Positions 1,009-9,458 of a stretch of DNA of 10,830 bases are shown one piece after another. How positions within the stretch are numbered: the stretch's first letter is position 1; each line of letters starts with the position of its first letter. The position numbers and the translations under genes were made by a program. This stretch comes from a virus, in UHGV virus genome UHGV-2152145. One strand, written 5' to 3'. The notes under the pieces are model-generated. The model did not search any database, had not been told where the DNA came from, and saw only the letters and a list, made by a program, of their open reading frames with translations.

Positions 1009-1503
1009 ATGAATAACAGCAGCAATACCACAAACCGTAATACGTCTTCACCCGTTGAGTCAGCCTGTCATGCGTTACTGGATTTTATTGCCCGGGAAGT
1101 CTTTGAGAATAAAGCATCGGAAGAGGATGTCAGGGAGCGTTGCAAAGTATTTACAGCGCTGCTTAACGAAGGATTTAAAGCCCTGCTTGATGAGTCAGGG
1201 CTGAATCTGTCGAATCTTCGTAAACAGTGTAAGGAACTGGAATCTCAGATAACCAGACTGGATTCTCAGTCCGACGCTATTTGTCGCAGAAGCGCTCAAA
1301 TTGAACGCTTCATTGGCCACCATTTACCTTTTTTTGATTTGAACAAAGTTTCTGGTACTGCCAGTCAGTCATGTGAACCAGCGCCTTCTCCGGCTCAGTC
1401 GGCTGTGTCCAGTAGTCAGCCCAGTAATCTGTCAGAGCAAGGGACATCTCTGCGGGGGTCATCTGCTCAACCGTTGCCGGGAGCCAGTGATGCTGATGAA
1501 TAA
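1009..1503 (+). CDS. Hypothetical protein, predicted coiled-coil core with Ser/Pro/Gln-rich low-complexity C-terminal tail
   Basis: ATG at 1009 is preceded by GAAGGA (995-1000) at 8-nt spacing; the ORF-track start at 910 has no RBS. The central region (LRKQCKELESQITRLDSQ) looks helical/coiled-coil. The last ~190 nt overlap the minus-strand ORF 1310..1783, so the 3' portion is uncertain. Confidence 0.5.
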   Translation: MNNSSNTTNRNTSSPVESACHALLDFIAREVFENKASEEDVRERCKVFTALLNEGFKALLDESGLNLSNLRKQCKELESQITRLDSQSDAICRRSAQIERFIGHHLPFFDLNKVSGTASQSCEPAPSPAQSAVSSSQPSNLSEQGTSLRGSSAQPLPGASDADE

Positions 1504-1783
1504 GAGCAAACTTAACGGCTTGTTGAATGCTGATACTGTTATCGTCCAGAAAAAACCAGCGACGGCTGTTAATCAGCCAGTGTCCGAGCCAGCAAAGTCG
1601 GTAAGCGAGCTTCTGGTCAGCCCCGGGAAAGATTTCAGTTCCCTGGTCAAAGAAGGTTTTACAACGTTCCACATCGTCGGTGCTCATGCCTCCGGCTTTC
1701 CAGTTTTCATAATATTTTGCCATGTTGCCATCCTCATCATGGTTGTTATCAATGCCGGACGGCAGTTGTTTTTCTGTATTCAT
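1310..1783 (-). CDS. Possible divergent minus-strand ORF (157 aa) initiating inside repeat copy 1; uncertain
   Basis: The minus-strand ATG (complement of 1781-1783) is preceded by AAGGAG at ~7-nt spacing. The first 11 codons (MNTEKQLPSGI) are identical to those of minus ORF 2669..3064 because they lie within the repeat. The product is Trp/Tyr-rich and protein-like, but it overlaps the 3' end of + CDS 1009..1503, and antisense ORFs of this size are common in this window. Confidence 0.3.
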   Translation of the reverse strand: MNTEKQLPSGIDNNHDEDGNMAKYYENWKAGGMSTDDVERCKTFFDQGTEIFPGADQKLAYRLCWLGHWLINSRRWFFLDDNSISIQQAVKFALIHQHHWLPATVEQMTPAEMSLALTDYWADYWTQPTEPEKALVHMTDWQYQKLCSNQKKVNGGQ

Positions 1784-1956
1784 AAAAATTCTCCTTTAAA
1801 ACAATCTGTTATGAGTATGCGAATGCTGTCCGTACCTTCTGACCGGGGTCGGCAAACTTACCGGTCTGAAAACGTACAGGCAGTTATGGGCATTTTATGC
1901 CCTGCAACTGTTCGTCCGGCGCCCTTTTTCCTTTTTTTACACAGCCAGGTTTCCGG
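1751..1956. repeat. Copy 1 of a ~206-bp direct repeat (leader/regulatory element), upstream of CDS 2011..2913
   Basis: Aligned by eye to 3032..3237 at a constant offset of 1281 bp with no indels and roughly 16 mismatches. The central block (~1826..1920) differs at only 2 positions. Contains the palindrome GGGCATTTTATGCCC (1888..1902) and the imperfect inverted repeat TCTGACCGG-N14-CCGGTCTGA (1838..1869). Confidence 0.9.
1888..1902. promoter_or_regulatory. Perfect 15-bp palindrome GGGCATTTTATGCCC inside repeat copy 1 (identical site at 3169..3183); candidate operator or RNA hairpin
   Basis: 6-bp arms GGGCAT/ATGCCC around a TTT centre, conserved exactly in both repeat copies, followed about 20 nt later by a T-rich tract (CCCTTTTTCCTTTTTTT). 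No canonical sigma70 -35/-10 pair could be assigned confidently by eye. Confidence 0.35.
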
Positions 1957-2010
1957 TTATCTGCGGGGAAGTGACGCACCTGGCGGGCAGAGAGATATGG
2001 AGGTGAAAGT

Positions 2011-2913
2011 ATGTCTTCCTCAGTGAAATATTCTCCGGTTCCGGCGGTGTTAACCCGCCCTGAATTGCTGGCTGAACTGAACCTGCTGATGACCCGGATT
2101 GCCAGTGGGTGTCGTGTGGGGGTTCCGGCGTCATGTCGTCCGGTCATTGCGGTGCACGGTGGTTATGTTTCATACAGTTCTCCACGCGCCGGACGTGTTT
2201 TTCAGGACGGTTCCCGCCCGGAGATAGTGATGGCCGTCAGTAACCGGGAACGGATGTGCGAATGGTTCAGTCAGGTCTGGCTTCCGCTGCATCTGGCTGC
2301 CCTTGAAGGCGATGAGAGTGCTTTTTTCAGTGCGGAGGTCAACATGGTGCGCCGCGAGCTGCAGCGCGTTCCGGGGAATTCAATGAACTGCATGTGCTGG
2401 GCAAGCCTTGCTGCACTGGCATTTGATGCTGAAGAGCGGGTGGAACGGCAGAAAGGCAATAATGAGAACATCGCAACATATGATGAGAGCATCGCAACAT
2501 ATGCATTCCGTGCTGCCTGTACTGTGAGTCTCTGTCTGAGCCGGAATGTTTCCGGAGGTATTCCGCGCTCATACCCTGAATGGAAAGCGATTTTATTTCC
2601 CCGTGATGGTGCTGACATTTTCCCCGACGGGTGGCTGGAAAATATGACCCGTCGGGCTGAACGTGTCTTTACGAGTGCGAAACGTCAGTGTGGAATGCTC
2701 TCAGCCAGTCAGGCAGCGCTTTTTTCTCAACAAACACGTCAGTGTGCCAGTGAGCAATGCTCCGGCCGTATTCAGGCCGGCAGTCATCATTCAGGGAGCC
2801 ACCCTGACGTTTCAGCTTATGAAGTACGCTGTGCACAAGAAATGTCGCTTTCACCGGTCCATTCGACCCGACAGTGTTCAGTTCAATCCACTGATTCTGC
2901 TGAAACGGAGTGA
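2011..2913 (+). CDS. Hypothetical protein (300 aa), no recognisable domain; flanked on both sides by the 206-bp repeat
   Basis: ATG 2011 is preceded by GGAGGTG (1999-2005) at 5-6 nt spacing, directly downstream of repeat copy 1. Contains an in-frame 21-bp tandem duplication (2464..2505) and a Cys/Ser/Gln-rich C-terminal ~80 aa that looks low-complexity. The 3' end overlaps minus ORF 2669..3064. Confidence 0.5.
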   Translation: MSSSVKYSPVPAVLTRPELLAELNLLMTRIASGCRVGVPASCRPVIAVHGGYVSYSSPRAGRVFQDGSRPEIVMAVSNRERMCEWFSQVWLPLHLAALEGDESAFFSAEVNMVRRELQRVPGNSMNCMCWASLAALAFDAEERVERQKGNNENIATYDESIATYAFRAACTVSLCLSRNVSGGIPRSYPEWKAILFPRDGADIFPDGWLENMTRRAERVFTSAKRQCGMLSASQAALFSQQTRQCASEQCSGRIQAGSHHSGSHPDVSAYEVRCAQEMSLSPVHSTRQCSVQSTDSAETE

Positions 2914-3064
2914 AAGGATGAGCCGATTCAATACAGTTCGGGGGGAAGGGGTTACAGAGCCCGTCTTTTTCCGTCATGACCTTTCCGTTACTCAGCAGCC
3001 AGAACTGCTGGGTGTATTTCACTTCAGATCCAATGCCGGACGGCAGTTGTTTTTCTGTATTCAT
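2669..3064 (-). CDS. Possible divergent minus-strand ORF (131 aa) initiating inside repeat copy 2; uncertain
   Basis: The minus-strand ATG at 3062-3064 is preceded by AAAGGA. It shares only the first 11 residues with ORF 1310..1783 and then diverges completely. It overlaps the 3' low-complexity tail of + CDS 2011..2913. Confidence 0.25.
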   Translation of the reverse strand: MNTEKQLPSGIGSEVKYTQQFWLLSNGKVMTEKDGLCNPFPPNCIESAHPFTPFQQNQWIELNTVGSNGPVKATFLVHSVLHKLKRQGGSLNDDCRPEYGRSIAHWHTDVFVEKKALPDWLRAFHTDVSHS

Positions 3065-3237
3065 AAAGTTTTTCCTTTAAATCAGATTGTTATGAATGAG
3101 CGAATGCTGTCCGTACCTTCAGACCGGGGGCGGCAAACTTACCGGTCTGAAAACGTACAGGCAGTTATGGGCATTTTATGCCCTGCAACTGTTCGTCCGG
3201 CACCCTTTTTCCTTTTTTCACATAGCCGGGTTTCCGG
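3032..3237. repeat. Copy 2 of the ~206-bp direct repeat, immediately upstream of dnaB
   Basis: Same element as 1751..1956. Contains GGGCATTTTATGCCC (3169..3183) and the perfect 9-bp inverted repeat TCAGACCGG-N14-CCGGTCTGA (3119..3150). The dnaB RBS GGGAGG and ATG 3261 follow about 20 bp after the repeat ends. Confidence 0.9.
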
Positions 3238-3260
3238 CAGTCAGAGAGGGAGGATACACC

Positions 3261-4649
3261 ATGGCTGAACGCTATATTCCGCGCTCCGTTGATGCTGAAC
3301 AGGCTGTGCTTGGCGGCCTGATGCTTGATAATGATCGCTGGGATGAAGTGGTGCTGATGCTCAGGAGGGAGGATTTTTCTCTGGCTGTGCACAGGGTGAT
3401 ATTCCGCTCTATGTCAGAGCTGGCAGTCAGCGGTCAGCCGTTCGACCTCATCACGCTGAGTGAGCATATTGAGAAAACGCACAATATTGAGGCACTCGGC
3501 GGCTTCGCTTACCTGGCTGAGCTCAGTAAGAATACACCTTCAGCAGCCAATATCATGGCTTATGTCCGTATTGTGGCGGAAAAGAGTATGCTGCGGCAGC
3601 TTCAGGAAACCGGTAATTCTCTGGTTGCTGATGTTGCATCGCCGGATGCCACTCCGCGCGCAGTTCTTGAATCCGCGGAACGGCGACTTTTTTCTCTTTC
3701 CCAGACAGGCATGCTGCATGAGCGCAGTGAAGTGAGCCTTTCCTCCGCAATGGAGCTGGCCCTGCGTCAGCTGGAAGAAGGACTGAGGGCGGGCGGGATG
3801 ACGGGCACCCCAACGGGGTTTGATGAACTGGATGAGATGACCTGTGGCCTGCAGCCCGGGGATCTTATCCTTCTGGCAGCACGTCCGTCGATGGGGAAAA
3901 CGGCCCTTGGGCTCACTCTGTGTCTTAATGCCCTGCGTGAGCGGACCGATGAAACGGTATTCCTGTTCAGCATAGAAATGTCCAGGGAGCAACTGATTCT
4001 GCGTACCCTGTCGATGCTGTCCCGGGTGGAGCTGACTCGTCTTCGCAGCAGCATGATGGACGATGAGGAGTGGGCGAGACTTACGGCAACAATGGGTGAG
4101 TTCATGCAGGAGGGGACATCTGTCGGTGAAGGTAACCGCCTGATCATTGATGACTCGTCATTTCAGACTCCGTCATCACTGCGCGCCAGTGCCCGTCGTT
4201 ATGTGCGTCTGTATGGCAGACCTTCCCTGATAATGGTCGATTATCTCCAGTTGATTCGTTCACCGGACCAGGAAAACCGCACTCAGGAGATTGCGGAAAT
4301 ATCCCGCGCCCTCAAGTCGCTGGGGAAAGAACTTGGATGCCCTGTGCTCGCACTGTCGCAGCTTAACCGACAGGTGGAACAGCGGGCAGATAAACGACCA
4401 AACAACGGTGACCTGCGTGATTCCGGGGCGCTGGAGCAGGATGCTGACCTCATTATGTTTATTTACCGTGACGAGGTTTACAACCCCGGCACTCTGGATA
4501 AGGGCGTGGCGGAAATCATTGTGAGCAAACAGCGACAGGGACCGACCGGTACGATACGGGTGAGCTTCGATGGTCGTTACACCCTGTTTTCACCGTTTGA
4601 ACGTGGCTGGAATTTTGACCGTTCCGGAGGCAATGCGTATGTCAATTAA
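3261..4649 (+). CDS. dnaB: DnaB-family replicative DNA helicase (463 aa)
   Basis: N-terminus MAERYIPRSVDAEQAVLGGLMLDN is a typical DnaB N-terminal domain start. Walker A ARPSMGKTALGL, Walker B-like LIMVDYLQL, and SQLNR plus DLRDSGALEQDADLIMFIYRDEVY match the RecA-like DnaB C-terminal domain. The start is set at ATG 3261 with GGGAGG at 3248-3253; the ORF-track start at 3096 lies inside the repeat and lacks an RBS. Confidence 0.9.
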   Translation: MAERYIPRSVDAEQAVLGGLMLDNDRWDEVVLMLRREDFSLAVHRVIFRSMSELAVSGQPFDLITLSEHIEKTHNIEALGGFAYLAELSKNTPSAANIMAYVRIVAEKSMLRQLQETGNSLVADVASPDATPRAVLESAERRLFSLSQTGMLHERSEVSLSSAMELALRQLEEGLRAGGMTGTPTGFDELDEMTCGLQPGDLILLAARPSMGKTALGLTLCLNALRERTDETVFLFSIEMSREQLILRTLSMLSRVELTRLRSSMMDDEEWARLTATMGEFMQEGTSVGEGNRLIIDDSSFQTPSSLRASARRYVRLYGRPSLIMVDYLQLIRSPDQENRTQEIAEISRALKSLGKELGCPVLALSQLNRQVEQRADKRPNNGDLRDSGALEQDADLIMFIYRDEVYNPGTLDKGVAEIIVSKQRQGPTGTIRVSFDGRYTLFSPFERGWNFDRSGGNAYVN

Positions 4650-6264
4650 GCGAAATCATTCCCTTGACCTGGGGGCCGCCATCATGCAACCGGGGCGCCA
4701 GGCCAGTAAGACCGGTAACGTGGTTGCCCTGGGGGAAACGCCCATGGTTCTGACGCTGGATCAGTTGCGCCCTAATCCTGATAACCCGAGAACCACGCGC
4801 AATCCCCGGTACGACGATATTAAAAGTTCAATTTTCTCCCGCGGACTGGATACGGTGCCAAAGGTCACCCGGATACCGGAGAGTGAGCCGGATATCTACA
4901 TCTTCAGCGATGGTGGTAACACTCGTTATCAGATCCTGAGAGAACTGTGGGAGGAGACCGGCGAGCAGCGTTTCTACCGTATTCATGTGCTTTTCAAACC
5001 GTGGCCGGGGCGGCTTCAGTGTGTCATTGGTCATCTGGCTGAGAATGAAGTCAGGGGCGAACTGACGTTTATTGAAAAGGCTCAGGGTATCCATAAAGCA
5101 CGGATGATTTATGAAGAGTCCCTGCAGCGGACTGTGACGATCAGAGAACTGGCATCATTACTGACAGATGAAGGCCTTCCGGTAAGCCACTCATCCGTCA
5201 GCAGGATGGAGCATGCGCTGAAATATCTGTATCCGTGGATCCCCGAACTACTGGAGTCAGGAATGGGGAGACCGCAGGTCAATTCTTTGTTATCTCTCCG
5301 TCAGGATGCGGAACGCATCTGGGGGCAGTTTGCAGTCGCGGCGGAAAACGATGTGGATTTTGATCGCGTGTTTGGTGAATGTTGCGGCAAATTCAACTCG
5401 CCGGAACTCTGGTCCATGGAAATGTTCAGGGACGAGCTGATCGGTGACCTGCTGAAGGCTCTGCCACATCCGGTACTGGATTACGATCGCTGGTTGCTGG
5501 AGCTGGATCCCCGGGAGCGTAATCGACGTCACCATTTTGGTGAACCCGAACCGGTACTCATGCCGGCGGGCAGCCCCCCGGAACCGGGGGCTCAGGTGGC
5601 GTCTGGCGGGATGACGGAAGCTGCTCAGGTCGTTGCCGCCACTCCCGCAGACCGTGAGAGCGTCATGAATACTGCGCAATCAGGGGCTGAGAAAGAGGAC
5701 CGCCCGGTCGCAGATAAACGCGAACGACGCAGAAAGGAAGTTCAACCGGATATGTATGGTGGCGAAGACTCATACAGCGGTGATTGCGGAGAGGATGCGA
5801 CCGGTGAGTCAACTGATATACCGATAATGCCGGAAGATAACGCCATGCAGGAGGGGGGAGAATTTCGCCTGGCGTCTGCATTCACTGGTGCTGAACAGGA
5901 TGATATCGAATCTCTGCAGAATGAGGCGTTTCACCTCGCATGGGAGCTGGCGTCACATACAGGCTGTGTCGATGAGATAGCGATGGACCGGGAAAGTGAG
6001 CTGTCTGCAGGATTTGGTGCGGCAGAGGCAAATTGCTCACCGGTCATGGCATTTCTTGTCAGACTGACCGGTGAGGAGGTTCTGCGGGTCAATCCGGTTT
6101 CCCTTGATGCACTGCTGATAGGCGGCAGTACTGAAGAAGACCTGCCGTTGCTTGATGATGAACATGCAGGAAAGTTGCTTCGCCTGCTGGGTGTGTTGCG
6201 TCGTCTGCGGGGGCTGCAGCGTATGGTGGAAGACGAGAGTGAGGAAGGGCGCGATGAATGCTGA
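4639..6264 (+). CDS. parB: ParB-like nuclease-domain protein with long acidic low-complexity C-terminal extension
   Basis: LDQLRPNPDNPR and GNTRYQ match the ParB/Srx N-terminal domain signature (xPNPxNPR box, GxxR). ATG 4639 has GGAGG at 4626-4630 with 8-nt spacing and overlaps the dnaB stop by 11 nt, consistent with translational coupling. The C-terminal ~230 aa are rich in E/D/P/G/A. Confidence 0.8.
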   Translation: MSIKRNHSLDLGAAIMQPGRQASKTGNVVALGETPMVLTLDQLRPNPDNPRTTRNPRYDDIKSSIFSRGLDTVPKVTRIPESEPDIYIFSDGGNTRYQILRELWEETGEQRFYRIHVLFKPWPGRLQCVIGHLAENEVRGELTFIEKAQGIHKARMIYEESLQRTVTIRELASLLTDEGLPVSHSSVSRMEHALKYLYPWIPELLESGMGRPQVNSLLSLRQDAERIWGQFAVAAENDVDFDRVFGECCGKFNSPELWSMEMFRDELIGDLLKALPHPVLDYDRWLLELDPRERNRRHHFGEPEPVLMPAGSPPEPGAQVASGGMTEAAQVVAATPADRESVMNTAQSGAEKEDRPVADKRERRRKEVQPDMYGGEDSYSGDCGEDATGESTDIPIMPEDNAMQEGGEFRLASAFTGAEQDDIESLQNEAFHLAWELASHTGCVDEIAMDRESELSAGFGAAEANCSPVMAFLVRLTGEEVLRVNPVSLDALLIGGSTEEDLPLLDDEHAGKLLRLLGVLRRLRGLQRMVEDESEEGRDEC

Positions 6265-6985
6265 TGCCGCACGTCAGGATCAACTGATTAAACGGATAAG
6301 AAAACTGCTGGCGCTGAGCCGGAATAACAGTAACCCCCATGAGGCAGGCCAGGCACTTTCCCGTGCTCAGGCGCTGATGCGCAAGCACGGTATCACTGAA
6401 CTGGATACTGATATTTCGGTGATAAAGACCTCGTCATCAAAGGGGGCCCCGTCAGAAGCGGAAAAAGTTCCGGTATGGATGGGGCGCCTTATGCATGTTG
6501 TTGCAGAGGCATTCGGATGCCATACATACCTGGACTGGCGTATCACAACCGGAAGGTACTGGCGGCGGGTTGTCATATTTTATGGCTTTGGGGAGCGCCC
6601 GGTTGTGGCGGCGTATGCCTTTGATGTTCTCTGCCGGCAGATGCAAAAGGCAACAAAGGCGTATCTTTCAACCCAGAGCAGGGCATTAAAATTGTCAACC
6701 CGCAGGGCAAGAGCAGCCATGTTTCGTGACGGCTGGGTTTATGGGGTGCGTGATGTGGTGGATGCATTCCCGCTCACGGAAGATGAGACGCGTGTAATGA
6801 AGACGTGGCTGAAGAGACAGCAATTTGAGGGAATGGCTGCCTTCCGGAATGTTAAGGACTGTAATGGTGGTGATCGTGCACGCTGGCAGGGATACAGCGA
6901 GGGTAAAAAGGCAACACTGCATCATGGTGTTGGTTCCCGGAATCTGAGACCTGAAAGCCTGATATCGGGCGGAGGTGAGGTATGA
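6254..6985 (+). CDS. DUF2786-like protein (conserved hypothetical of plasmids/phages/islands)
   Basis: N-terminus MNADAARQDQLIKRIRKLLALSRNNSNPHEAGQALSRAQALMRKHGITELD fits my recollection of the DUF2786 N-terminal helical motif (IxKIrKLLALaxsxNxxEAxxAL). Start 6254 follows GAGGAAGGG and overlaps the parB stop by 11 nt. Confidence 0.65.
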   Translation: MNADAARQDQLIKRIRKLLALSRNNSNPHEAGQALSRAQALMRKHGITELDTDISVIKTSSSKGAPSEAEKVPVWMGRLMHVVAEAFGCHTYLDWRITTGRYWRRVVIFYGFGERPVVAAYAFDVLCRQMQKATKAYLSTQSRALKLSTRRARAAMFRDGWVYGVRDVVDAFPLTEDETRVMKTWLKRQQFEGMAAFRNVKDCNGGDRARWQGYSEGKKATLHHGVGSRNLRPESLISGGGEV

Positions 6986-7560
6986 GTAACAACTTGTCAC
7001 AGGCCACCAACGGGCTGTTGATGCAACTGGTGATGGATCTCAAGAGTGGCTATCTGCGGCGATGTGAAGCACTGGGGCTTTCCCGGGAAGAAATGCAGAT
7101 GCTGCAGGGGCTGAGCATTGAAGAAATTCACTATCTGTCAAATTCAGAAGTGTCGGTGCTGCGGCTGGATATTAACCACAACAATCTTGTGCGCATGTTG
7201 CAGCAGGCGCGGACTGAACAGAAACGTCTGCAGCGAATCGATCGCGCTCTGGCGCTGGGGGGCTCTATCGAACTCATGGCGTTTTATTTTGGTCTTTCCA
7301 GCGTGGATGTGGCTGCGCGGCGTCGTATCTCCGGTATTGATGTTCGTCCCGGAAGGGGGATCACCCTGAGTGACGATGAGAATTCTGAACTCTGGCGGTT
7401 GTGGCAGAAAGCCGGGATCAATGATGTGGAGAGTGTGGACGGGCTGGATGTCATGATGCTTTGTGCTGAACAGATGAACATTCCACTGACGGCCATCTGG
7501 CATGCCGTCAGAGGGTGGCATACAACCGGAAATCCGGATCAGGTAAGGAGCGCGTCATGA
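6982..7560 (+). CDS. Hypothetical protein (192 aa), part of the coupled operon
   Basis: ATG 6982 overlaps the upstream stop (ATGA) and is preceded by GGAGGTGAGG. Composition is protein-like with no motif I can name with confidence. Confidence 0.6.
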   Translation: MSNNLSQATNGLLMQLVMDLKSGYLRRCEALGLSREEMQMLQGLSIEEIHYLSNSEVSVLRLDINHNNLVRMLQQARTEQKRLQRIDRALALGGSIELMAFYFGLSSVDVAARRRISGIDVRPGRGITLSDDENSELWRLWQKAGINDVESVDGLDVMMLCAEQMNIPLTAIWHAVRGWHTTGNPDQVRSAS

Positions 7561-7814: not shown

Positions 7815-8072
7815 ATGAGTAATGCAGCAAGACTCCAGCTGGGTTTTTCTCCGTTTTCAAAAACTATCGTGCTGGCAAAAATGCGTAATCTTGACGACGG
7901 AACCAGTCTTCGTGTCGGTAATGATCCCGGCCGCGATGTAACCAATGAGGCGGCTCAGCTTGTCTGGCATCTGGTCATGGCAGAAGGTGGTGAAATTATG
8001 TGGGAAATGGACGATGGCTCCCGCATGGTGCTGAAGGCTGAAAGTCAGGAGGCAACCAGTGAGCAAGATTAA
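7815..8072 (+). CDS. Small acidic hypothetical protein (85 aa)
   Basis: ATG 7815 is preceded by GAGGTGG (7803-7809). No HTH or other recognisable motif. The 3' end overlaps the next gene start by 14 nt. Confidence 0.5.
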   Translation: MSNAARLQLGFSPFSKTIVLAKMRNLDDGTSLRVGNDPGRDVTNEAAQLVWHLVMAEGGEIMWEMDDGSRMVLKAESQEATSEQD

Positions 8073-8727
8073 CTACCAGGCACTGCGTGAGGCGGCAGAG
8101 CAGGCAATGCATGACGACTGGGGATTTGACACGGATCTTTTCCATGAGCTGGTAACACCATCGATTGTGCAGGCACTGCTGGATGAACGGGAAGCCAAAA
8201 GCAAACTCCTGGCCGAACTGGACGCTAATTTATCCGAACTGGAGGCTGTTTTATCGGCGATGGGCGAAGAGCTCCAGAAAGCGACTGAGTCAATTGAGCG
8301 GGCTGATGCGGCTGCTACGTTGGCACACGAGACGTTTTCGGCGCTGGCGGCGGAGAATGCGATACTGAAGACAGCACTTCCTCAACCATTCGGACCTGAA
8401 ATGATGAAGGCTCTTGATGCGTATGAGAAGCACCAGGATGAAGTACCAGAGGCAGGAATGCTCAATGCATTTTTCATCTTACGCGACAGCATCTGTGTTG
8501 AAACCCCAGCCACCGATGCTTTCCTGGCTGAAGTACGGGCGCAGGGGGGGGATGCTGCTATAGAAGCTGCAAAAAATCTGGTGGCTCAGGAATATGAGTA
8601 TAAGGATTTCAAAGCGGCGCAGAGTGATTGCTGTATGTTTCCTGGTTCAGACTTGGTAGGGAAGGTTGAAATGACCGAGTGGTTAGTTGACTTTGCCGCA
8701 GAGCTTCGCAAAGGAGGCAACCAGTGA
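8059..8727 (+). CDS. Hypothetical coiled-coil protein (222 aa); shares its RBS and first ~12 codons with the next gene
   Basis: GTG 8059 is preceded by AGGAGG (8047-8052). The N-terminus MSKINYQALREAAEQA is near-identical to the start of 8724..9458; from memory this resembles ead/Ea22-like prophage proteins. The central region is helical/coiled-coil in character. Confidence 0.6.
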   Translation: MSKINYQALREAAEQAMHDDWGFDTDLFHELVTPSIVQALLDEREAKSKLLAELDANLSELEAVLSAMGEELQKATESIERADAAATLAHETFSALAAENAILKTALPQPFGPEMMKALDAYEKHQDEVPEAGMLNAFFILRDSICVETPATDAFLAEVRAQGGDAAIEAAKNLVAQEYEYKDFKAAQSDCCMFPGSDLVGKVEMTEWLVDFAAELRKGGNQ

Positions 8728-9458
8728 ACAAGATTGACTATCAGGCACTGCGTAAGGCAGCACAAAACTATCAGTCGACGCTGGCGTGGTATCAGTCCAT
8801 CCCGGACAGCCCAAATGCTGAACGGGATTGTGATGCGGCTCTGGCTGCGTTTAAGCATCACATCCGTCATCGGGAAGTGGATATTATCTCCGGGCTGTTG
8901 GATGAGCTGGACGAAAAACAGCAATACATTAAATCCCGCGACCAGGAGAATGAGGATATTGCTCTTACGGTTGGGAAGCTGAGAGTTGAGCTTGAGGAAG
9001 TAAAACAACACGCTGAAGAATTATCCGAAACCAACGCTGTTCGTAACCAATGGCGGCCAGATATTTGCCCAATAACCGGACGTGCATTTTTCATGTGGAT
9101 TGAGCATCCGACATTGGGAAATGTGCCGACGTATGGTGGCCCATTAGACAGTTACACCATTCCAACAAAGGACGGTGACGGTGAGTTTTCATGTGAGCGT
9201 TACGATCATGATTTCGGCGGTTGGGTAGAAAGCGAATGTCCTGGGTTATATCTGATTGATGATAAAGAACAATGCAGAGTCTACGAACTGGAGGAACGAG
9301 TTAAGGAACTGGATGCTCGGGAAATATCGCTCCCGGAACGTAGCAGTATGCTTCATCGAACAGATTTTAACGAGGCTTACCACACGGTAATGGCATACAA
9401 AGTTTCTGAAGTCATCGCTGCAATCCGCGTCGCTGGCATTCGCATCAAAGGAGAGTGA
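8724..9458 (+). CDS. Hypothetical protein (244 aa), mosaic: head shared with 8059..8727, tail shared with 10391..10606
   Basis: GTG 8724 is preceded by AAGGAGG (8711-8717). N-terminus MNKIDYQALRKAA; C-terminus ...AAIRVAGIRIKGE matches the C-terminus ...CTAAGIRIKGEQVK of 10391..10606. Overlaps the upstream stop by 4 nt. Confidence 0.6.
   Translation: MNKIDYQALRKAAQNYQSTLAWYQSIPDSPNAERDCDAALAAFKHHIRHREVDIISGLLDELDEKQQYIKSRDQENEDIALTVGKLRVELEEVKQHAEELSETNAVRNQWRPDICPITGRAFFMWIEHPTLGNVPTYGGPLDSYTIPTKDGDGEFSCERYDHDFGGWVESECPGLYLIDDKEQCRVYELEERVKELDAREISLPERSSMLHRTDFNEAYHTVMAYKVSEVIAAIRVAGIRIKGE

Follow-up and report, generated by a model that had tools for sequence, protein, structure and literature searches.

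Why does one and the same element of about 200 nucleotides (nt) recur in front of two different genes between parA and dnaB? The question is raised by UHGV-2152145, a stretch of 10,830 nt catalogued as a virus genome and referred to here, at its full length, as the window. A first-pass annotation, made from the letters of the window alone, had described two copies of a structured leader, one upstream of dnaB and one upstream of a hypothetical gene. Judged by its Pfam and NCBIfam matches and by the RefSeq annotation of 98%-identical Escherichia coli islands, the window is the left end of an integrative conjugative element (ICE) of the SPI-7/ICEPm1/PAPI-1 type. Such ICEs spread virulence and resistance genes in the Enterobacterales, the control of their parA-dnaB-parB operon is poorly understood, and the structured motif sits exactly at this replication and partition operon. 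Comparison of the available copies lends good support to the conclusion that the element is a new structured nucleic-acid motif of ~170 nt, with four helices and covariation, that is not in Rfam. The reading that we favour, tentatively and with somewhat less than even confidence, is that it is a portable junction of an accessory-gene array inside the parA-to-dnaB operon, which combines a structure in the operon mRNA with the start signals of antisense genes.

A direct repeat that folds into a four-way junction

Self-comparison of the window confirmed the direct repeat: positions 1750-1971 align with 3031-3252 over 222 nt at 90% identity and without gaps, which is far above the chance expectation for a window of 10.8 kb. 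The most-conserved 207 nt are 92% identical between the two copies, and the coordinates of copy 1 are those of copy 2 minus 1281. The central block (GCGAATGCTG...GTCCGGC, ~110 nt) differs at two positions, T/A in a stem and T/G in a loop. Here too the earlier description was accurate, as it was for the strong Shine-Dalgarno sequences ahead of ATG 2011 and of the dnaB ATG at 3261, and for the inverted repeat TCAGACCGG-N14-CCGGTCTGA, whose arms match fully in copy 2 and at all but one position in copy 1. What had been called a perfect 15-bp palindrome, GGGCATTTTATGCCC, is really an inverted repeat with arms of 6 bp flanking a centre of 3 nt. The copies in the window are the following.

1745 to 1957, plus strand: copy 1 of the element, a direct repeat between the minus-strand gene A and a gene of 300 amino acids (aa); covariance-model match at 1745-1955, 232.9 bits
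3026 to 3238, plus strand: copy 2 of the element, a direct repeat upstream of dnaB-PI; covariance-model match at 3026-3236, 226.9 bits
922 to 1000, plus strand: a third, decayed copy, recognised by alignment; its positions 922-942 form a 21-nt match with 1739-1759

Single-sequence minimum-free-energy folding yields a four-way junction for both full copies of the window, on either strand and with RNA or DNA parameters. Its parts are listed with the coordinates of copy 2.

3034 to 3050, plus strand: 5' arm of helix P1, TGCCGGACGGCAGTTGT, pairing with 3185-3202; 1753-1769 in copy 1; codons 5-10 of the minus-strand open reading frame (ORF)
3185 to 3202, plus strand: 3' arm of P1, GCAACTGTTCGTCCGGCA; 1904-1921 in copy 1
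3058 to 3098, plus strand: P1.5, in which TATTCAT (3058-3064) pairs with ATGAATG (3092-3098); 1777-1817 in copy 1
3106 to 3165, plus strand: P2, the long hairpin, made of TCAGACCGG-N14-CCGGTCTGA and two outer stems; 1825-1884 in copy 1
3168 to 3184, plus strand: P3, the small hairpin GGGCATTTTATGCCC; 1887-1903 in copy 1
3203 to 3238, plus strand: T/C-rich tract CCCTTTTTCCTTTTTTC and small hairpin P4, kept in four of five lineages; 1922-1957 in copy 1

P1 is a long-range helix of 17 bp in the window and of 17-22 bp over the lineages. P2 holds the longest uninterrupted stem (~23 bp) together with a conserved loop, GnCGnCAAAC, and a conserved GAAAA internal loop. The arms of P3 measure 5-6 bp, with compensatory changes (C-G/G-C/G-U and G-C/A-U) and register shifts across lineages. 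In P1.5, RNAalifold pairs alignment columns 87-93 with 124-130, and an A-U pair is replaced by G-C in five sequences; the plus-strand ATG within its ATGAATG arm is ATG or GTG in every lineage. The two palindromes of the first-pass annotation correspond to sub-helices within a larger structure, a four-way junction of ~170 nt, and the long-range helix that closes it had gone unnoticed there.

The decayed copy (GTTATCAATACCGGA...) retains the left ~75 nt of the element in front of a gene of a 165-aa family (1009-1503). P2, P3, the 3' arm of P1 and the T-rich tract are deleted, and the remnant is fused to the ribosome-binding site (RBS) of that gene.

In Salmonella (contigs L104, 3925-3945, and L106, 2925-2945) the P2 loop of 14 nt has the opposite orientation to that in every other lineage, and reads GATGTTTGCCGACAT as against TGTCGGCAAACAT in the otherwise very similar contig L085. 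This looks like a recent hairpin-loop inversion. A search of the window for the complement of the P2 loop elsewhere gave nothing beyond chance.

Covariation and the folding strand

The fold was assessed in an aligned set of 42 distinct copies, and a covariance model, R1, was built from 35. In the alignment (A5), 93.2% of the cells form standard pairs, a share that drops to 27-40% once the partners are displaced by 1-3 columns. The first-pass annotation had proposed to look for compensatory changes in other carriers, and these were found: two-sided changes occur at 15 of the 40 pairs against 4.9 +/- 1.4 in column shuffles, a level reached in none of 500 shuffles, although the copies are related by descent, so that significance based on shuffling overstates their independence. 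P1 alone has double changes at 7 of 15 pairs with 99.4% of its cells paired. RNAalifold, given no hints, recovered P1, P1.5 and P2.

Moreover, P1 has been re-formed from different sequence, as TGTCGGACG/CGTCCGACA in ICEPm1 and as GCCAGGCA/TGCCTGGC in Edwardsiella. In Citrobacter braakii, in a metagenome copy and in Salmonella it makes helices of 19-22 bp with energies of -32 to -42 kcal/mol, and the range over ICEPm1, Edwardsiella, C. braakii and Salmonella is -22 to -42 kcal/mol. When parts of the element are ranked by conservation, the helices come highest and the loop that faces the RBS of the minus-strand genes comes lowest. In the 5' arm of P1, 16 of 17 columns are invariant over 37 E. 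coli-type copies despite lying in codons, and these codons show no synonymous changes. Conservation of this kind bears out the earlier suggestion of a functional cis element as opposed to a neutral duplication. The comparison with Rfam that had also been proposed returned no matches for the whole window on either strand (Rfam 15, cmscan, E <= 1).

Which strand folds can be asked of the wobble pairs. A transition in a Watson-Crick pair leaves G.T on one strand and A.C on the other. On the plus strand, G.T wobbles occur at 21 pair positions compared with 8 positions with A.C, and for the P1 duplex 24 of 25 distinct copies have the lower energy on the plus strand, with a mean difference of 4.1 kcal/mol. 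Because of this wobble bias and these P1 energies, the folding strand would be the one that is the sense strand for parA, dnaB and nearly all other genes of the ICE. The evidence is good but not decisive; the counts are not phylogenetically independent. The folding molecule may be RNA or single-stranded DNA.

Distribution and borders

A search with the 230-nt element located it in 139 of 5426 complete E. coli genomes, at 220 places, all of them chromosomal and every one between parA and dnaB-PI. Islands that lack the 300-aa gene have a single copy directly upstream of dnaB-PI, and other islands have two or three copies inside 2.7 kb, so that an island may carry 1, 2 or 3 copies, with flanking genes that differ by copy. 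Other species were covered by a protein-guided sample of 64 dnaB-PI loci. In most of these (Kluyvera, Pantoea, Photorhabdus, Yersinia and others) parA or a small plus-strand gene abuts dnaB and there is no element; it is present in Proteus mirabilis and Providencia (ICEPm1-type), in Edwardsiella ictaluri and in C. braakii. Together with E. coli and Salmonella, these carriers fall in one subclade. The Salmonella copies were found via homologs of the minus-strand protein, and a pattern scan of metagenomes yielded more copies, including one contig identical to both copies of the window. R1 detected no extra copies in 45 distant SPI-7-type loci, and over 90 kb of one complete E. coli ICE it found only the two copies between parA and dnaB, none near ssb or the transfer genes. 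An essential helicase-loading or replication site, one of the functions suggested earlier, is unlikely, given that most related islands have the same dnaB-PI and no element.

The element is a discrete unit of ~215 nt. Its left border is abrupt, ~8 nt before TGCCGG, and its right border follows GGTTTCCGG; at least five unrelated flanks are found on the left and four on the right.

If the folding molecule were single-stranded DNA, the plus strand might fold during transfer or rolling-circle replication and serve as a priming site, as an ssi or sso, or as a Frpo-like promoter for the minus-strand genes, whose template is the plus strand. Such an element would need no upstream promoter and would account for a strand-specific fold; the four-way junction is also the minimum-free-energy structure with DNA parameters, an inverted hairpin loop is typical of DNA-hairpin mutation, and the ICE encodes dnaB-PI, ssb, topB and replication proteins. 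The leading regions of plasmids contain single-strand DNA promoters, Frpo and ssi (Masai and Arai 1997, cited in PMC11541004), which likewise are repeated, fold on one strand, measure ~200-300 nt, belong to conjugative elements and stand ahead of variable small genes. The resemblance, however, does not extend to form: the element is a four-way junction and not one long hairpin, its stems contain no hexamers resembling a -35, -10 or UP sequence, and the ~23 bp of P2 are too short to mimic both hexamers. Nor is there sequence similarity to plasmids, as the 230-nt element has no match among 72,556 plasmids, Frpo-bearing ones included (blastn, distant mode). Most relatives with the same replication genes do without the element, it has no copy near ssb or the transfer genes, and the open plus-strand frame described below would go unexplained. 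By analogy with F-type plasmids, moreover, the transferred strand would be the minus strand, since nearly all genes of the ICE lie on the plus strand. We consider a role as single-stranded DNA quite unlikely.

Genes that start inside the element

The first-pass annotation held that nothing in the coding annotation explains the repeat. In fact the whole element lies inside open plus-strand frames, and its left 34 nt are the RBS-proximal start of two minus-strand ORFs.

1310 to 1783, minus strand: gene A, 157 aa, without a known family; it starts in copy 1, which contains its RBS, its ATG and codons 1-11
2669 to 3064, minus strand: ORF C, 131 aa; its first 11 residues are those of A and the remainder is unrelated; it starts in copy 2

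Both ORFs (ATG at 1783 and 3064) begin with the peptide MNTEKQLPSGI and are preceded by AAGGAG or AAGGAA; RBS, ATG and the first ~12 codons are contained in the left part of each copy. On the plus strand, the TATTCAT of P1.5 is the complement of the minus-strand ATGAATA start, and the loop of P1.5 is the complement of the minus-strand RBS. The idea of a structured leader therefore stands in part: there are compensatory changes and the favoured strand of the fold is the dnaB sense strand, but the element includes starts of minus-strand genes and runs through a plus-strand frame instead of being an untranslated 5' region.

Gene A belongs to a family (A, 150-158 aa) that is distantly related to a second one (B, 142-143 aa). 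Substitutions are in excess at third codon positions in family A (426 versus 220 and 248), which has homologs down to 50% identity in Salmonella, as well as in family B (59 versus 26 and 30). These codon patterns indicate that A and B are real genes. ORF C shows no coding periodicity (86/36/78) and has no PGAP annotation in E. coli; it is probably a leftover gene start joined to a chance ORF antisense to the 300-aa gene.

ORF C overlaps the final 245 nt of the 300-aa gene, and in some islands an in-frame deletion of 165 nt shortens the latter to 245 aa and ORF C to 76 aa. In E. coli SW070917 (contig L001, 3873-4313) and identical islands, gene A is disrupted and the ORF started by the element ends after 30 codons; RefSeq annotates in islands of this type only a 114-aa remainder of gene A, from an internal Met.

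Several minus-strand ORFs are truncated or disrupted, and this, together with sharp borders, a variable copy number and the decayed copy at 922-1000, is what a recombination scar or an incidental duplication without a function of its own would lead one to expect. A scar would not concentrate its conservation in helices nor suppress synonymous changes in the P1 5' arm over 37 copies. Covariation over five diverged lineages and the persistence of the element in single-copy islands also speak against it, and we regard this explanation as very improbable. Even less credible is an invertible switch, in which a recombinase would flip the P1-flanked segment and so redirect expression between the flanking genes. 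The 17-bp inverted repeats around a segment of ~135 bp would suit it, a tyrosine recombinase gene lies beside parA, and the P2 loop occurs in both orientations among close relatives. However, in ~60 copies the P1-flanked segment has a single orientation, and inversion is confined to the 14 nt of the P2 loop in one lineage; a flip would part the minus-strand gene from its start codon, and it would leave the covariation in P1.5, P2 and P3 unexplained.

Translation starts can be controlled by cis-antisense RNA, as in FinP/traJ and in RNA-OUT/RNA-IN of IS10. The element resembles these systems in that its plus strand is the exact complement of the region where the minus-strand gene begins (RBS, start codon and first codons), with the anti-RBS in the P1.5 loop. 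It differs from them in size, being much larger, and in being common to several unrelated targets; a promoter devoted to a short antisense RNA was not detected, and the antisense would be the operon mRNA itself.

Open frames that bridge the insert

Opposite the minus-strand genes the plus-strand frame is open in every copy and lineage. Two such bridging frames are present in the window.

1496 to 2026, plus strand (open from 1373): bridging frame 1, antisense through gene A and through copy 1; its stop lies 13 nt past ATG 2011
2918 to 3268, plus strand (open from 2663): bridging frame 2, through copy 2; its stop TGA (3266-3268) overlaps the dnaB start at ATG 3261

In frame 1 the start, ATG 1496, overlaps the stop codon of the 165-aa family at 1501-1503; in frame 2 it is ATG 2918, 4 nt past the stop of the 300-aa gene (2911-2913). 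Where the bridging frame follows parA, its start overlaps the parA stop, as ATGA in ICEPm1 and as GTGA in E. coli, and one ICEPm1 ORF (contig L007, 3022-3753) extends from the parA stop as far as the dnaB ATG. Measured from the downstream start, the stop of the frame begins at +5, +13, -21, +5, +5, +1, +5, -11 and +1 nt in nine contexts; for dnaB the values are +5, +5, +5, +1, +5 and +1. To the right of the element, where the flanks are unrelated, the frame continues without a stop in 7 of 9 contexts; for each, the shuffle probability is 0.11-0.52.

A constraint is visible from the other strand as well. The A and B genes use no TTA, CTA or TCA codon, which would be stops on the plus strand, before their last ~10 codons. 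With the codon usage of the island itself, the probability of finding none is 0.02-0.05 per gene, for six genes of approximately four lineages.

Two other interpretations of the plus-strand ORFs were considered and rejected. As real proteins, the long ORFs have translations that look antisense and are not conserved, and periodicity points to the minus frame. The reading as a conserved small protein fails on the frame inside the element, which has weak codon periodicity and a peptide that is wholly altered where the P2 loop is inverted. It is the openness of the frame that is conserved, and not the encoded peptide. Existing annotations are inconsistent on this point: some records call the plus-strand frame a hypothetical protein (L008, 3241-3753; L073, 1122-1661; L108, 1510-1866) and others call the minus-strand gene. 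The frame of dnaB, too, can be extended upstream of ATG 3261 by 55 codons without a stop (ORF 3096-4649, 517 aa), over the right half of copy 2.

Genes can be coupled in translation through overlapping stop and start codons, with junctions of the ATGA type. The bridging frames are similar in that they start on the upstream stop and end at the next start (ATGGCTGA, ATGCATAA, GTATGA). In contrast to such junctions, the coupled 'gene' would here consist of 116-250 antisense-looking codons whose peptide is not conserved, with a complete functional gene on the opposite strand. It is possible, though in our estimate doubtful, that this represents an undescribed way of embedding antisense genes in a coupled operon, in which a stop-free structured bridging frame would constrain the codon choice of the antisense gene, ribosomes would cross it and re-initiate, and arrays of 1-3 cassettes would arise by recombination at the junctions. 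If so, the locus would offer a clear comparative case of selection that works on both strands together, with a real antisense gene on one and, on the other, a frame kept open for no purpose but its translation. It would then be relevant to the debate on overlapping antisense genes and to the question of how an operon can accommodate insertions and still escape Rho-dependent polarity.

Promoters, terminators and protein sites

No sigma-70 promoter had been assignable by eye in the first-pass annotation, and our scans agree: neither strand of the element has a consensus promoter in the window, in the ICEPm1-type, in the E. coli single-copy type or in Salmonella. The element also lacks an intrinsic terminator, defined as a G+C-rich hairpin with a U tract within 0-2 nt, P1 being followed by CCC before the T run. 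A terminator-like site was likewise absent between parA and copy 1, and the terminator-like matches that the scans did return were at chance level and lay outside the element or were not homologous. The missing sigma-70 promoter and the missing terminator between parA and copy 1 fit expression of the plus-strand genes by read-through.

For the minus-strand genes a candidate -10 is the P3 loop, which reads TAnnnT on the minus strand in five lineage variants when inspected by eye. Two other candidates were dismissed after inspection by eye. The GGCAC in the 3' arm of P1 resembles the -24 box of a sigma-54 site, with the -12 GC absent in all lineages, and the P2 loop (GGCGGCAAAC) is similar to the ops site of RfaH in copy 2 only, with an essential T missing.

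Could the element then be a control region that acts as double-stranded DNA, that is, a bidirectional activator-dependent promoter or operator in which the P2 arms, P3 and the P1 boxes ~150 bp apart are protein sites, possibly with looping or a cruciform? In part this must be true, as the element lies between real minus-strand genes and plus-strand genes and the former need a promoter here; the -10-like P3 loop and a P2 loop that is conserved though inverted in Salmonella are in line with it. ICEclc has promoters that depend on BisDC, a ParB-like protein with a DUF2857-like partner, and share a common motif (PMC12409273, PMC9286271), and our island encodes such a pair: the ParB-family and DUF2857 proteins just past dnaB (4570-7560), with a DUF2786/DUF7168 gene between them, resemble the BisD/BisC activators. 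Nevertheless, the element has no sigma-70 consensus on either strand in four lineages, and its compensatory changes affect four helices, including arms that are 150-190 nt apart, with both arms changing base identity. Symmetric protein sites would not predict the wobble asymmetry (21 versus 8) or the plus-strand preference (24 of 25).

The closest described cis elements in this ICE family are the bisS sites and the transfer-competence promoter motif of ICEclc, and both differ in sequence, form and distribution. bisS (GAGCTATCCCCnGGGGATAGCTC) is a near-perfect palindrome of 23 bp that lies inside genes, twice in ICEclc at a distance of 2 kb, and is bound by BisDC (PMC12409273). The promoter motif is present at 8-11 promoters across that ICE (PMC9286271, PMC12409273). 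Both systems have ParB-like and DUF2857 genes just downstream and a repeated cis sequence with inverted repeats. Unlike bisS, the element contains no parS-like palindrome, its P3 arms being 5-6 bp long, its P2 arms 14 nt apart and its P1 arms ~135 nt apart; unlike the promoter motif, it is limited to the parA-dnaB interval and is lacking in most relatives. Across 90 kb of the complete E. coli ICE, searches with the P1 box, the P2 repeat and the P2 loop returned nothing but 9-mer matches at chance level, so that boxes and repeat are absent at its other operons. The shared operator for the ParB-like/DUF2857 pair that had been put forward earlier is accordingly not upheld, and as a full account of the element a double-stranded control region seems to us rather unlikely.

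A proposed junction in the operon mRNA

Riboswitches such as SAM-I, with its four-way junction, are multi-helix mRNA leaders closed by a P1 helix. The element has much in common with leaders of this type: a long-range P1 closes several hairpins, bases of loops and internal loops are conserved, and it stands on the sense strand just ahead of a start codon, followed by a pyrimidine tract and the Shine-Dalgarno region. It departs from them in having no Rfam match, in lying within an open reading frame and overlapping the start of an antisense gene, and in preceding a helicase and proteins of no known family instead of metabolic genes; no ligand or expression-platform switch was identified.

According to the portable-junction reading, the ancestral parA-dnaB operon would have been a chain of translationally coupled plus-strand genes, into which an antisense gene was inserted with its junction module and later multiplied. 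The operon would be read as one plus-strand transcript from a promoter upstream of parA. Ribosomes would be passed along the bridging frame, so that Rho-dependent polarity is avoided across the antisense insert, and would be handed over to the next start codon. The four-way junction in the mRNA may set the flow of translation to dnaB and the other plus-strand genes, with the internal ATG sequestered in P1.5. It may also hide the segment opposite the translation start of the antisense gene, from RBS and ATG to the first codons, and pairing between sense and antisense RNA would then be limited or open to regulation. Recombination between elements could multiply the copies and exchange cassettes.

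A number of points weigh against this proposal. That plus-strand RNA passes through the element is deduced from the gene order and the open frames. A translated frame is an awkward place for a stable four-way junction, which ribosomes would keep unwinding. Codon periodicity of the plus-strand frame inside the element is weak (344/308/406), the region is poor in stops, with two of the three plus-strand frames open before dnaB, and the conserved internal ATG has no Shine-Dalgarno sequence in the E. coli-type copies. At 922-1000, where a decayed copy is left, the plus-strand gene that follows has persisted without the core, which is therefore dispensable at least to that extent. An inverted P2 loop, as in Salmonella, would be less of a problem if the site acted as double-stranded DNA than if the loop were strand-specific. 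The minus-strand genes must have a promoter in the element and none is recognisable, so that part of the conservation may be that of protein-binding DNA. Finally, masking of the Shine-Dalgarno sequence by the T/C tract did not exceed its control: the downstream Shine-Dalgarno is predicted to be mostly paired (probability of being unpaired 0.13-0.43 in eight contexts), and pairing of the tract with that of dnaB is predicted too, but composition-matched shuffles of the upstream sequence do equally well.

The covariance model can be used for finding these cassette arrays and their uncharacterised cargo genes.

Island context and neighbouring genes

In the window the genes follow one another in the order ParA (1-879), 165-aa family, 300 aa, dnaB-PI, ParB family, DUF2786 and DUF2857. 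In a complete E. coli relative they are followed downstream by ssb, topB and the type IV transfer genes, with almost all genes sharing one strand. The ORF at 4570-6264 matches TIGR03764 (ICE_PFGI_1_parB) at 3.8e-113, and that at 6982-7560 matches DUF2857 at 8.7e-66, with an additional weak FlhD-like match. The genes next to the element copies are listed below.

1009 to 1503, plus strand: cassette gene of the 165-aa family, 51% identical to the gene after a full element copy in E. coli E24377A
2011 to 2913, plus strand: cassette gene of 300 aa, no known family; ATG 2011 with a strong Shine-Dalgarno sequence
3261 to 4649, plus strand: dnaB-PI, replicative helicase of SPI-7-type islands, by Pfam DnaB and DnaB_C and by the RefSeq annotation of near-identical E. 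coli islands

Searches of Pfam, NCBIfam, PHROGs and PADLOC gave no credible family match for the proteins A, B and C or for those of 300, 165 and 145 aa. AlphaFold2 models of flanking proteins were of low to moderate confidence, with predicted local distance difference test (pLDDT) scores of 55 and 63. The latter is that of the 300-aa protein, whose residues 244-300 are predicted to be disordered and whose model had no match in the PDB at E <= 0.001 (Foldseek).

In a metagenome-assembled genome of Pluralibacter (contig L048, 2279-3013), a homolog of the 300-aa gene is the immediate neighbour of dnaB on its upstream side; the two genes are coupled and no copy of the element separates them. By this arrangement the 300-aa gene may be an older member of the operon than the element. 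The gene also contains a 21-nt tandem duplication at 2459-2500 (ATAATGAGAACATCGCAACAT / ATGATGAGAGCATCGCAACAT), through which a unit of seven residues is repeated as NENIATY and DESIATY. Further downstream, the window has another direct repeat, of 51 nt and 90% identical (8047-8097 versus 8712-8762), which comprises the RBS and N-termini of adjacent ead/Ea22-like genes; these genes, at 8059-8727 and 8724-9458, are tandem paralogs.

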